Shown here: one piece after another, positions 54,220-57,263 of the stretch
Position numbering within the stretch: position 1 is the stretch's first letter
How the letters are laid out: each line of letters starts with the position of its first letter
NCBI GenBank assembly: GCA_034927475.1
Contig: JAYFPW010000002.1
Location: 45,372 to 109,371, forward strand
Direction: 5' to 3'
DNA: 64,000 nucleotides
Source: Candidatus Elulimicrobiales bacterium
GTDB lineage: Bacteria > Patescibacteriota > Minisyncoccia > Phycocordibacterales > UBA5272
Program-made: the position numbers and the translations under genes
The notes under the pieces: generated by a model
Told to the model about the DNA's origin: nothing
Database searches by the model: none
The model's input: only the letters and a program-made list of their open reading frames with translations

Positions 54220-54293
54220 TGCCCATTCGTCTAATGGTAGGACAACAGTTTCTGGCACTGTTAATTGAGGTTCGACTCCTTGATGGGCAGCCA
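54220..54293 (+). tRNA. tRNA-Gln (anticodon CTG), CCA encoded
   Basis: Manual fold: acceptor tgcccat/atgggca (perfect), U8, D-arm gtc-taatggtag-gac, anticodon arm acagt-uuCUGgc-actgt, T-arm tgagg-TTCGACT-ccttg, discriminator G then CCA. Confidence 0.8.
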
Positions 54294-54326
54294 TATTTAC
54301 TCTAAATACAGTGGTATAATCATTTT

Positions 54327-55622
54327 ATGAAAGAATTTGCCCCGAAATTAAATACAAATAAAATTGAAAGTAAAGAAGCTAGTGAAAGTGAAAGAGTGGA
54401 TTTAAATTTATTAGCTGAAAAAATTTCTAAATATGAACCAGATTCACAAGAATTTTTTAAATTAAAAAATTCTTTTATGAAATCTATGCCTTTCTTTAGA
54501 GAAAGGATACGAGGATTTGTTGAGTTATATGATGACTCTATATTTTCTCTTGCACTGGATAGTGAATATGAAAAATATTTTATATTAGGTGATAAATTGG
54601 GCTTGTTAACAGAAGAAGATAAAGAAATATTCTATGAACTCTTTAAGCTTGGGCAAATGAGATATGAAATTACCGACAAGATTTTAGAAAAAAGAGAATT
54701 TTATAAGGATAAAAATAAAGAAAAAAAAGAAAAACAAGAAGAGCGTGATAAGAAACTTGAAAAAGAAGAACTGTCAGAATTTATTTTGAAAAAAATGGGC
54801 TTTTCCTCAAAAGAATCTGAAGAACTTATTGGAAGCTGGTTCTCTGTGCAACAAGAAGATTTGTTAAAGTGGTATATATCGGAAAATCTACAAAATATAA
54901 AGAATTTAGAAGGTTTTGAAAAAGGTTCGGTAAAGTATTTATTTGATAATTTTGGTATTCGCGGTTTCGGAAGATATCGTCTACACGAACTTAAAAAACA
55001 GTATGAAGAGAGAGAAAATATGGGGCCATATGGTGTATTTTTTCAGGCAGTTTTTGACTCAAATGGATCTTTTGTAAATTCAAACCAATCAGAATCTTTA
55101 GGTGAAAAAGTAGAAGAACATGATTTTCTTATTAGAATTGTAGAAGCTGATGGAAAAATAGATTTAGCTAAAAGATTACTCTATTTGAGAGATAAATATG
55201 ATCAAAAAATAAAATTTATGTATATGCATGTCCATGGCCATACCAGTGTTGTTGGGTTAGGGGATCGTAAAGGCTCTAATAGACTACTTCTACAAAAAGA
55301 TTTAGAGGGTAAAGGTGTGCAAAGAGTTAAAAATTTATTTGAAGATGATGCTGAACTAATTCTCTCTAGTTGTTTAACAGGGATTAAGGGAGGTCTCGCA
55401 GAAGAAATGGCTAACACTTATGATGTTAAAGTTATAGCAGCCGATAAGCCAACAGTAGGAGAACCAATTTCTATAGATATAGAAAAAACTCCAGATGGAA
55501 ATAATTTAAAATTTGATATTATTTTTAATACGGCAGAAATGGAGGATAAAGATTGGGGAGAAATAGAAAAAAGATCCGATTTATTCGGTACTGTTACTTA
55601 TAATCCAAAAAATAAAAATTAA
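54327..55622 (+). CDS. hypothetical protein: coiled-coil K/E-rich N-terminal half plus C-terminal region with a caspase/CHAT-like His...Cys signature
   Basis: C-terminal FMYMHVHGHTS...(47 aa)...ELILSSCLTGIKGGLAEEMANTYDVKVIAADKPT has a His-Gly then a hydrophobic strand-Cys-x-T-G, followed by a G..A....V.VIA segment, as in caspase-hemoglobinase-fold (CHAT/C14) peptidases. Confidence 0.35.
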   Translation: MKEFAPKLNTNKIESKEASESERVDLNLLAEKISKYEPDSQEFFKLKNSFMKSMPFFRERIRGFVELYDDSIFSLALDSEYEKYFILGDKLGLLTEEDKEIFYELFKLGQMRYEITDKILEKREFYKDKNKEKKEKQEERDKKLEKEELSEFILKKMGFSSKESEELIGSWFSVQQEDLLKWYISENLQNIKNLEGFEKGSVKYLFDNFGIRGFGRYRLHELKKQYEERENMGPYGVFFQAVFDSNGSFVNSNQSESLGEKVEEHDFLIRIVEADGKIDLAKRLLYLRDKYDQKIKFMYMHVHGHTSVVGLGDRKGSNRLLLQKDLEGKGVQRVKNLFEDDAELILSSCLTGIKGGLAEEMANTYDVKVIAADKPTVGEPISIDIEKTPDGNNLKFDIIFNTAEMEDKDWGEIEKRSDLFGTVTYNPKNKN

Positions 55623-56569
55623 TCTCTAACAACAACTGTAGTTCCTAAATCTGCCCATTCGTATAATTTTTCAGAATCAGTTGGAACTAAGTTCACACAA
55701 CCGTGTGACCATTGAGAGCCAAATTTATCATGCCAATAAGCTCCGTGTATAGCTCCACCTTGATAGGTAAAATACATTGTCCAAGGAACTCCAGGAAGAT
55801 CATAATATTGTTCAGAAATACCAGGAAGAGGTCCTTGCATATAACGGCTTGGAGTTTTTTCAAAAATATTAAAATTACCACGAGGAGTTGGTAAATCATC
55901 TAGTCCAGTAGAAACTAAAACTTCCATAAATAAAGTATCGCCATCATAAGCATAAAGTTTTTGTTCACTTCTATCCACAATAATTTTTTTATTAGTTAAA
56001 TTTTCAACTTTCGCATCTTTTGCGTAACGAGTTTTTTCACTAGTTAAATCTTTCAAATATTCTGTAGAAACATACCACTCAGAAGCCAATCTATCTGAAT
56101 ATCTTACCCATTCATCAAAAACGATATGAGACCATTCTACACCATCAGCCTCAGTAATTTCTCCAGTAGATTTTAAAACCATACCTGTTCTGAGACTGGT
56201 GACAACAGGACAATTTACACTAGGGCAAGCTCTTGCTCTCACACAAGTTCCACCAAAGTGTGCGTCACAACTATCAATAACTTCTACGTATTTACCAGAT
56301 TTTGTAATAATAGAAACAGTGTCTTTAGTTGTAGAAGCGGTTTCTTCTGTGGTAGTTGAAGTTGTTTCAGTACTAGACAGATTTTCTTCAGTACTTGAAG
56401 AAGTTTCTATTTCGATAGGGGATAATGGAGTATTTAAGTTGAAAGAATCATTTTTAATAAAAGATTGTCCTGCTAGATAAATTAATAAAAGTAGAGTAAA
56501 AACGATAACAGAGATTGTTAAAATTTTAACCAGGTCTTTATTAGATTTTATTTTAGTATTTTTTTTCAT
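55619..56569 (-). CDS. L,D-transpeptidase (YkuD domain) with N-terminal membrane anchor and Ser/Thr-rich linker
   Basis: C-terminal catalytic domain with HG...SHGCVNL (catalytic Cys). N-terminal TM helix plus STEENLSSTETTSTTTEETASTT linker. Confidence 0.8.
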   Translation of the reverse strand: MKKNTKIKSNKDLVKILTISVIVFTLLLLIYLAGQSFIKNDSFNLNTPLSPIEIETSSSTEENLSSTETTSTTTEETASTTKDTVSIITKSGKYVEVIDSCDAHFGGTCVRARACPSVNCPVVTSLRTGMVLKSTGEITEADGVEWSHIVFDEWVRYSDRLASEWYVSTEYLKDLTSEKTRYAKDAKVENLTNKKIIVDRSEQKLYAYDGDTLFMEVLVSTGLDDLPTPRGNFNIFEKTPSRYMQGPLPGISEQYYDLPGVPWTMYFTYQGGAIHGAYWHDKFGSQWSHGCVNLVPTDSEKLYEWADLGTTVVVRD

Positions 56570-57048
56570 TTATTTTTTATATTCTTATCAAATAATATAA
56601 AAACACTTCCTAATATTATACCAAATGAATTTGCTGTTAAATCAAGCCAGGTATCATTTACGCTTAAAGCAAAAACTAAACTCGTATTCATTTGTACAAA
56701 GAATTCAAATATTTCGTTTAAAACTCCTAAAAAAGTAACTATTAAGGCAGTTAAAATGAGAATTTGTAACTTATTCAGTTTAACCTCACTATCTTTAAAA
56801 GATAAATAAGAAATTAACATAGTTAAAAATCCTCCAGCTATAGCATGCTGAACTCTGTTAGCAAATTCAGGATCTTTAATAAAAAAGACTATAGAAAATA
56901 TAAAAATTCCAGAAAACAAAATTATTAAGAAAGATTTTTTCTTTAAAGTTTTTTTATTTATTTTTCCTTTAAAAATAAACTGGAAAGCATAGTTTAACAT
57001 TACATAAAGAATTATATAAGCTACTATAAAAATAATATAAGAAATCAT
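56566..57048 (-). CDS. hypothetical polytopic membrane protein (start trimmed to avoid the tRNA)
   Basis: 4-5 TM helices. The 41 N-terminal codons of the ORF-track call (…SSNGRTAAFEAVNVGSIPA…) are the antisense translation of a tRNA-Gln gene, so the start is placed at MISY (ATG 57048). Confidence 0.45.
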   Translation of the reverse strand: MISYIIFIVAYIILYVMLNYAFQFIFKGKINKKTLKKKSFLIILFSGIFIFSIVFFIKDPEFANRVQHAIAGGFLTMLISYLSFKDSEVKLNKLQILILTALIVTFLGVLNEIFEFFVQMNTSLVFALSVNDTWLDLTANSFGIILGSVFILFDKNIKNK

Positions 57049-57068
57049 ATAAACTAAACTTAAACTTG

Positions 57069-57139
57069 CTGCCAGAGCTGGAATCGAACCAACATTCACA
57101 GCTTCAAAGGCTGCTGTCCTACCATTAGACGATCTGGCA
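57069..57139 (-). tRNA. tRNA-Gln (anticodon TTG)
   Basis: Reverse complement folds as acceptor tgccaga/tctggca, U8, D-arm gtc-taatggtag-gac, anticodon arm gcagc-cuUUGaa-gctgt, T-arm gttgg-TTCGATT-ccagc, discriminator G. The GGTTCGATTCC T-loop is visible. Confidence 0.85.
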
Positions 57140-57263
57140 ATAGATAAAATATAACATAAAAATAAGAGCATTTCAATTTCTAAATATAAAAATATAAAAA
57201 GTAAAAACCCCGACCGAAGTCAGGGTTTTCACAGTGTTGCGATACAAGTACCACAACAGTAAT

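Follow-up and report, generated by a model that had tools for sequence, protein, structure and literature searches.

The predicted protease gene and its family

In the 64,000-nucleotide stretch of DNA from a Candidatus Elulimicrobiales bacterium analysed here (the window), a gene placed between two tRNA-Gln genes encodes a protein whose C-terminal half is, judging from predicted models, very probably a caspase-fold cysteine protease (Table 1). The translation of this open reading frame (ORF) includes FMYMHVHGHTSVVG and AELILSSCLTGIKGGLAEEMANTYDVKVIAADKPT, the two motifs quoted in an initial annotation of the locus; the ORF and both motifs could be confirmed from the sequence and the two flanking tRNA-Gln genes, also part of that annotation, were recovered by ARAGORN. 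The codons of His303 and Cys349 occupy positions 55233-55235 and 55371-55373, respectively, and the two residues are spaced 46 residues apart. The dnaK and dnaJ genes (Pfam labels taken from the collinear locus L004) lie upstream of the protease gene, and a small membrane-protein gene accompanies the YkuD-type gene in the interval down to the second tRNA gene. The G+C content of the protease gene is 0.294, against 0.315 for the window, and the composition runs through without a break.

Table 1. Coordinates of the protease-family gene, the parts of its product and the features around it (window positions; aa, amino acids)
Feature	Position	Strand	Description
Protease-family gene	54327..55622	+	ATG-to-TAA ORF, 431 aa plus stop; N-terminal helical region and C-terminal caspase-fold (clan CD-like) domain, both as predicted
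N-terminal helical region, aa 1-194	54327..54908	+	Fast-evolving in the family; last ~45 residues (about aa 150-194) more widely conserved
K/E-rich insertion, ~11 residues (about aa 135-145)	54729..54761	+	Only in the window protein and P0002-P0004; alignment columns 381-400
Pre-domain segment, aa 195-234	54909..55028	+	Conserved; E..PG....L205...FGI..F.R216-Y217....L..Q.....PYG
Caspase/haemoglobinase-fold core, aa 235-431	55029..55619	+	Predicted order β1, α1, β2, α2, β3-[His303-Gly304], small β, α3, β4-[Ser348-Cys349], α4, β5, β-hairpin, terminal strand
Asp244	55056..55058	+	99% conserved; three residues past strand 1 (AlphaFold2 secondary structure), loop-1/helix-1 position
Glu273	55143..55145	+	100% conserved; C-terminal end of strand 2
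His303-Gly304	55233..55238	+	Invariant; predicted general-base His, loop after strand 3; aligned with Tce1 His186
Ser348-Cys349	55368..55373	+	Invariant; predicted nucleophile Cys, loop after strand 4; aligned with Tce1 Cys240
Extended -10 element TGgTATAAT	54312..54320	+	6 nt from its end to the ATG; read from sequence
tRNA-Gln(ctg)	54220-54293	+	ARAGORN; 33 nt upstream of the protease gene
YkuD-type L,D-transpeptidase gene	55619-56569	-	Detected by Pfam (E 1.6e-23); located past the protease gene, before tRNA-Gln(ttg)
tRNA-Gln(ttg)	57068-57139	-	ARAGORN; far end of the interval; context feature outside the protease gene

A search of 5.8 billion proteins revealed 46 relatives of the window protein. 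All except one share 49-64% identity with it, either as full-length proteins or as fragments (one fragment being identical), and the remaining one is a distant 681-aa protein (28%). The start 'MKE' is kept in the alignment of these relatives, so that the number of relatives and the conserved start together establish the ORF as a real gene. None of the 46 carries a Pfam domain, and the only name among them that mentions an organism is 'hypothetical protein [Patescibacteria group bacterium]'. The window protein itself gave no match in Pfam, NCBIfam, PADLOC or PHROGs, and a sequence search of the PDB with the whole protein returned nothing usable.

A profile of the family was run with HMMER over all 1.84 billion cluster representatives. 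The matches numbered 1,565 at E<=1e-3 and 1,169 at E<=1e-10; the representatives stand for clusters at 50% identity, and the family comprises at least 1,565 of these. In most of the hits the best-matching stretch extends from profile positions ~100-185 to ~400, with some of them reaching the N-terminus, and in 195 retrieved proteins the domain is placed at the C-terminal end, with a median of 2 residues after it and 286 before it. Ten large members were scanned and contained no Pfam domain at all. Members that carry a name belong to Paceibacterota, Staskawiczbacteria, Uhrbacteria, Buchananbacteria, Levybacteria and Parcubacteria, every one of them annotated as 'hypothetical'; the family is widespread in Patescibacteria (candidate phyla radiation, CPR) and appears to be confined to them. 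Much of bacterial diversity belongs to this group, whose genomes are tiny and whose conserved genes are for the most part without an assigned function.

Seven loci, all of the close subfamily, were found with the alignment of close relatives; a word-indexed search with an alignment of the diverse domains returned close relatives only and added nothing. Three of the seven, close homologues with 52-55% identity (L006, L008 and L009), lie on contigs binned as Woesearchaeota, Endomicrobiaceae and Gammaproteobacteria. These contigs are 2.2, 4.4 and 26.8 kb long, have a CPR-like G+C content of 0.31-0.34 and are probably mis-binned Patescibacteria in public metagenome-assembled genomes (MAGs). A full-text literature search found no title or abstract describing such a family. 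It is a previously undescribed family, a new family-level branch of the well-known clan CD with a distinctive taxonomic restriction and architecture, and a predicted fold, a dyad and a testable activity can now be assigned to at least 1,500 sequence clusters that are all labelled 'hypothetical protein'. The family is ready for a curated protein-family model.

Fold and predicted dyad of the C-terminal domain

The full-length AlphaFold2 (AF2) model of the window protein showed a predicted local distance difference test score (pLDDT) of 79 and a predicted template modelling score (pTM) of 0.80. A domain-only model of residues 195-431, calculated from an alignment of 33 diverse members, reached a pLDDT of 92 and a pTM of 0.89 with the secondary-structure elements unchanged. 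The strands of the core were placed by AF2 at residues 235-241 (β1), 268-274 (β2), 295-301 (β3), 338-346 (β4) and 368-372 (β5), followed by a hairpin (382-387/394-399) and a final strand. This β-hairpin follows strand 5 in the models at the place where caspases have two helices.

Fold searches were carried out with two independent programs, one of them Foldseek against 350,542 PDB chains, and both returned almost exclusively clan CD peptidases. Among the top 50 Foldseek matches, 49 belong to this clan (legumains, Tce1, caspases, CED-3, CHAT, GPI transamidase), with probabilities of 0.98-1.00. The highest score in the fold-match table corresponds to Tce1/DUF4347 (PDB 9qpe_G, 12.8), followed by SAVED-CHAT (12.3), the gingipains R and K (10.5), the C11 clostripain-like peptidases (9.7), caspase-4 (9.6), legumain (9.4) and TPR-CHAT (9.3); caspase-9, Dronc, GPI8, MALT1, metacaspases and Raptor scored 8-9.3, and the C80 toxin domains of RtxA and TcdA (7.4 and 7.3) were the weakest clan CD matches.

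Clan CD is defined by a six-stranded sheet of order 2-1-3-4-5-6, with the catalytic His at the end of strand 3 and the Cys at the end of strand 4 (PMC4357240). The sheet forms part of an α/β/α sandwich and has an antiparallel last strand; both catalytic residues come after hydrophobic strands, a Gly follows the His, and the enzymes of the clan carry out Cys-dependent hydrolysis or transamidation of peptide bonds. As far as the order of the secondary-structure elements and the fold searches show, the C-terminal domain has this fold, and in the predicted models β3 leads into His303-Gly304 and β4 into Ser348-Cys349. The initial annotation had read the region as a caspase/CHAT-like fold with a His-Cys dyad, and this reading is upheld by the clan CD fold matches, by the invariant His and Cys after strands 3 and 4, and by their register with Tce1 (see below).

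Conservation of the two residues, which had been proposed there as a check, was analysed in 186 diverse C-terminal domains. His303, Cys349 and Glu273 are conserved in 100% of them, Asp244, Gly236, Tyr217, Gly352 and Leu205 in 99%, and Arg216 in 98%. In the alignment of close relatives the invariant positions include Asp244, Asn246, Arg270, Glu273, Arg283, His303, Gly304, Ser348, Cys349, Gly352, Gly355 and Gly356. An independent set was obtained by a DNA-pattern search of metagenomes for the motif of the pre-domain segment (L...FGI..F.RYP...L..Q), which contains no catalytic residue. All 85 loci selected in this way encode family members, and wherever the position was covered the His was present in 98 of 98 sequences, the Cys in 94 of 94, Glu273 in 99 of 99 and Asp244 in 98 of 99.

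The pre-domain segment (aa 195-234) was modeled in the domain-only model as two helices and a short helical turn with a pLDDT of 96-98, alongside the protease core. This segment of ~40 residues before strand 1, with the conserved Arg216-Tyr217 pair, would form part of the folded domain.

At the level of sequence, the profile of the 33 domains gave a single meaningful PDB match, chain 9qpe_G of Tce1 (E 0.045). The alignment places the 'ggHGt' motif of the family on chain His77 and the 'LsSCstG' motif on chain Cys131; the chain begins at Tce1 residue 110, so these residues correspond to His186 and Cys240 of Tce1. The same register was repeated by hhalign (E 1.4e-4, probability 52%), and the authors of the Tce1 structure superpose His186/Cys240 on the catalytic dyad of TcdB (PMC13323088). 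In a lax Pfam scan of the 33 members the only recurrent families were DUF4347 (5 of 33, best E 0.004) and Peptidase_C80 (2 of 33, best E 0.0048). DUF4347 (PF14252) gave no match to the window protein at E<=1, nor to its domain at E<=5, and its curated threshold was not reached; the hits to Peptidase C80 (PF11713) likewise fell short of the Pfam threshold, CHAT (PF12770) gave no match at any threshold used, and no match to the caspase/metacaspase C14 model (PF00656) was obtained. The relationship to DUF4347 looks real from these alignments, yet lies beyond the family boundary. By sequence the domain is distantly related to the DUF4347/C80 branch, and by structure to DUF4347 and CHAT, below every family threshold. 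The family is a new branch of the caspase clan and falls between the CHAT proteases and DUF4347/Tce1, a little-studied group.

A comparison with these groups revealed both likenesses and differences. Tce1 (PA0256), a putative cysteine protease and cargo effector of the H3 type VI secretion system (T6SS) of Pseudomonas aeruginosa, has in common with the family a domain of ~200 residues after an unrelated N-terminal domain, but the sequence identity is 14% and the N-terminal domain of Tce1 is a β-sandwich, with the protein loaded into the Hcp rings of the T6SS (PMC13323088), whereas the N-terminus in the family described here is helical. Nothing T6SS-like was seen among the called neighbours of the relatives or the recurrent neighbour clusters. 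The CHAT proteases (SAVED-CHAT, 8tl0; TPR-CHAT/Csx29, 7zoq and 7y83; DdvA, 8rot) show the same layout of a helical N-terminal module followed by a C-terminal caspase-fold protease, although the window protein is far smaller; no SAVED, TPR, CRISPR or anti-sigma partner was found in the window, among the called neighbours of the relatives or in the recurrent neighbour clusters. Peptidase C80 (MARTX RtxA, TcdA, TcdB) resembles the domain in the His-then-Cys spacing of ~45-49 residues, the β-hairpin past strand 5 and a Leu 30 residues before strand 1, but the window protein does not belong to a large secreted toxin, and dependence on inositol hexakisphosphate (InsP6) and specificity for Leu are unlikely here. 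With the Arg/Lys-specific members of the clan (metacaspases and paracaspase, C14B; gingipains, C25; clostripain, C11; separase, C50) the likeness lies in a conserved acidic residue at the loop-1/helix-1 position and, in the case of separase, also in a helical N-terminal region; unlike them, the window protein shows no family match, no extra sheet strands (metacaspase/C11), no prodomain, no immunoglobulin domains and no signal peptide.

A closer inspection of the N-terminal half in the full-length model showed that residues 26-227 are all helical, with about 12 helices of 5-30 residues (the longest at 41-70) and a pLDDT mostly of 70-95 over the block. The N-terminal half thus looks like a compact helical domain in the model, and the long K/E-rich coiled-coil proposed in the initial annotation is replaced by a multi-helix arrangement. 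The K/E-rich run covers about aa 127-148, and the insertion within it, confined to the window protein and its three closest relatives and modeled at low confidence (pLDDT 61-66), is the source of the coiled-coil impression. Relationships detectable by BLAST were found for 8,911 of 8,911 pairs of C-terminal domains (median identity 38%) but for only 175 of 8,911 pairs of N-terminal regions. Since some profile hits reach the N-terminus and the subclades align over 80-99% of their length, the N-terminal regions are homologous but fast-evolving, and not unrelated modules. A hydrophobic segment was seen in only 2 of 177 full-length members; the proteins of the family are therefore soluble and without Sec signals.

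Proposed activity and competing readings

The window protein is likely to be a soluble, cytoplasmic, stand-alone cysteine endopeptidase of clan CD, from a family outside Pfam, NCBIfam, PADLOC and PHROGs. By analogy with the clan, Cys349, in the loop past strand 4, would act as the nucleophile and His303, followed by Gly304 in the loop past strand 3, as the general base. The residues that determine P1 specificity in clan CD are found on loop 1/helix 1 and on L3, L4 and L5, examples being Arg87 of caspase-7, Asp365 of MALT1 (paracaspase) and Asp95 of TbMCA2 (metacaspase) (PMC4357240); the two Asp residues are S1 residues supplied by the loop-1/helix-1 position. The position of Asp244 in the window protein suggests, by this analogy, a candidate determinant of basic P1 specificity. 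Asp244 and Glu273 probably shape the S1 pocket together; because the former sits at the loop-1/helix-1 position and is 99% conserved and the latter is invariant, an acidic pocket would be expected, with a preference for Arg or Lys at P1 like that of metacaspases, paracaspase, gingipains and clostripain. Glu273 may lie near the active site or, alternatively, take part in a structural salt bridge. The fast-evolving N-terminal region would most likely serve as a regulatory or substrate-recruiting module; TPR-CHAT and separase likewise have a helical N-terminal half. Should the enzyme prove active, the proteins that it cuts could show how symbionts with reduced genomes regulate proteolysis or deal with hosts and phages.

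Several points weigh against this assignment. Solved clan CD structures match the model with low TM-scores (0.32-0.45 when normalised to the query and 0.57 when normalised to Tce1, by Foldseek). The models were read for the order of their secondary-structure elements; how the strands are arranged in the sheet, the dyad geometry and the positions of Asp244, Glu273 and Arg216 relative to the active site are presumed. The link by sequence to DUF4347 is marginal at the E-value and hhalign probability given above, and Tce1 is itself only a putative protease, non-toxic in yeast, with an active-site-dependent phenotype seen only in its paralogue Tce2 (PMC13323088). The P1 prediction is a positional analogy only, and the closest families by sequence (C80) prefer Leu. 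Finally, peptidase activity is a prediction for every member of the family.

The product could also be an effector of anti-phage defence or programmed cell death whose gene came in with accessory DNA inserted between the two tRNA genes; its N-terminus would sense the invader and its caspase-like domain would kill or arrest the cell. This reading as a whole seems rather unlikely. It is in keeping with the defence proteases SAVED-CHAT and TPR-CHAT/Craspase being among the closest folds, with an N-terminal region that diverges much faster than the protease domain, with a genomic context that varies between subclades and with the neighbours of some distant relatives, which are a helix-turn-helix (HTH) gene of XRE type in 7 of 99 loci and a serine recombinase gene in 3, including one in L001 next to tRNA-Ser. 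Against it stands the context of the gene in the closest genomes, L004 (protein 63-64% identical) and L011 (60-61%; MAG UBA5272), in which the interval and its flanks are collinear with the window. The order rpS9/GrpE/DnaK/DnaJ/tRNA-Gln(ctg)/protease gene/YkuD/membrane protein/tRNA-Gln(ttg)/orf106/DUF378/SNase...YqeY is kept in both, and in L004 the collinearity reaches on to RmuC; the neighbours are 66-92% identical (DnaK 89-92%) and the protease gene 60-63%. The tRNA-Gln(ctg) gene is also found directly upstream of the protease gene in L012 (protein 50-51% identical) and downstream of it in L007. Neither the ORF list nor Pfam revealed an integrase in the tRNA-Gln interval. The landing site for accessory DNA that the initial annotation had seen in the two tRNA genes was thus not borne out, given the absence of an integrase, the uniform G+C content and the conserved interval, and in this window the protease gene is a stable chromosomal gene and not the cargo of a tRNA island.

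The content of the neighbourhood also argues against a defence effector. PADLOC-DB v2 gave no defence-model match for the window protein or for P0046, no defence-island location was found and PHROGs gave no match either. No NTPase or other known sensor domain was seen, and there is one copy of the family per sampled locus. Clustering of all neighbours in 99 non-redundant loci showed no conserved partner gene, with no neighbour family in more than seven of them, and most neighbours are housekeeping genes. The defence or programmed-cell-death role put forward in the initial annotation found no support in these results. The family motif had no match in 2.9 million viral contigs, a weakly informative result given that these records are ~80 times fewer than those of the metagenome set that gave the 85 hits. 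The commonest neighbour, an XRE HTH protein of 70-80 aa with L001 and L002 among its loci, lies less than 600 bp from the gene in five of its seven loci and upstream of it in six. Among the distant orthologues, that of L001 comes after genes for an XRE HTH protein and a serine recombinase, beside tRNA-Ser, that of L003 follows LexA-like, Y-family polymerase and GIY-YIG genes, and others are placed among ribosomal, tRNA-synthetase, trigger-factor or RadA-like genes. The lack of a recurrent neighbour family in the 99 loci, together with a conserved -10 element of its own, indicates that the protease gene behaves as a stand-alone unit.

Self-cleavage in the manner of the C80 peptidases was also considered; cutting in cis is the mode of action of the cysteine protease domains of MARTX and TcdA/TcdB. 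A C-terminal domain activated by a small molecule would cut upstream of strand 1 and free the N-terminal helical region as a cargo or effector, which is unlikely for this protein. DUF4347 and Peptidase_C80 are the only Pfam families touched, the protease domain is conserved and stands C-terminal to a part that varies, and the hairpin past strand 5 resembles the 'β-flap' of C80 (PMC4357240). In the MARTX cysteine protease domain (MARTX-CPD) the scissile Leu precedes strand 1 by 30 residues, with the dyad at +91 and +140 (PMC4357240), and in the window protein Leu205 (99% conserved) is found exactly 30 residues before strand 1, with the His at +98 and the Cys at +144. However, the domain-only model puts Leu205 halfway along a helix (aa 201-209, pLDDT about 97) and not in an extended linker, and the residue after it is bulky and variable instead of small. 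Conserved basic positions are present (R216, R270, K277, K/R282, K294 and K/R333), but these are about six, compared with the 13 InsP6-binding residues of MARTX-CPD (PMC4357240). InsP6 is moreover a eukaryotic metabolite, the proteins of the family have no secretion signal, and the C80 structures are the weakest of the clan CD fold matches.

A related and quite improbable arrangement would be a self-processing delivery module specific to Patescibacteria, in which the C-terminal domain, switched by a host- or stress-derived ligand, cuts off the fast-diverging N-terminal region as a lineage-specific effector acting on the host cell of these episymbionts or on an invading phage. If true, this module would be a miniature bacterial counterpart of effector release by MARTX/TcdB in organisms that lack the usual secretion systems.

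That the domain is not a protease at all is very improbable. It would then be an α/β domain of Rossmann-, VWA- or flavodoxin-like type in which the His and the Cys occur by chance, or else a caspase-fold scaffold without activity, like Raptor or c-FLIP. With the domain-only model 27 clan CD proteins rank above the dehydrogenase and VWA matches, strand 1 is not followed by a glycine-rich loop for nucleotide binding, and the His, the Cys and the Gly after the His are invariant in hundreds of diverse sequences, which is unexpected for a scaffold.

Expression signals and minor features of the loci

The extended -10 element was not listed by a simple -35/-10 scan; the pattern TGnTAnAAT is kept at equal spacing before the start in L004 and L011. 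No Shine-Dalgarno sequence precedes the ATG of the protease gene. The distance of 6 nt between the -10 element and the ATG, together with the missing Shine-Dalgarno sequence, suggests that the mRNA is leaderless or nearly so, starting at or next to the start codon, just behind the tRNA-Gln gene.

Variability of the tRNA-Gln interval among relatives was a further check proposed in the initial annotation: the block is kept in L004 and L011, and L011 carries an additional ORF. This ORF (L011 7328-8056, +) encodes 242 aa and separates the protease gene from YkuD; neither the window nor L004 has it. Its product shows a hydrophobic segment at the N-terminus and did not match Pfam significantly, and the ORF constitutes the sole difference in content seen inside the interval.

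A copy of the 5' end of tRNA-Gln(ctg) (54220-54235), identical in 15 of 16 bases, was found at 55652-55667, 30 nt past the stop codon of the protease gene; the chance expectation for such 16-nt matches is about 0.02 in the window. The pair is also present in L011 (5879-5894 and 8110-8125), is not present in L004 and was the only tRNA-derived repeat found. Its interpretation as an attachment site was set aside, as it derives from the 5' and not the 3' end of the tRNA and sits in the conserved 'LYEWA' codons of YkuD, and the copy in L011 stays with YkuD although the extra ORF separates this gene from the protease gene. The repeat is probably a coincidence tied to the conserved coding sequence.

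In L001 (3702-7266) the pair formed by the XRE HTH and protease genes comes after a serine recombinase gene abutting tRNA-Ser, an arrangement that resembles an integrated element, unlike the window. An apparent second copy in L059 (2524-4106, -) was rejected, since it corresponds to one frameshifted gene read as two overlapping ORFs on the same strand; this split gene represents either a frameshift pseudogene or an assembly error.

At the far end of the interval, a mechanically called ORF of 201 aa (56566-57171, -) reads through tRNA-Gln(ttg) on the same strand, so that its first ~35 residues are translated tRNA, and its homologue in L004 was called at 160 aa. As the start of the ORF translates the tRNA and the L004 homologue is only 160 aa long, the true membrane-protein gene probably starts downstream of tRNA-Gln(ttg). 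Just upstream of this tRNA gene a strong terminator-like hairpin (57201-57232, -) is formed by a 14-bp stem with six G-C pairs followed by a T-run, and it is succeeded on the minus strand by a promoter-like site with an extended -10 at 57176-57148.

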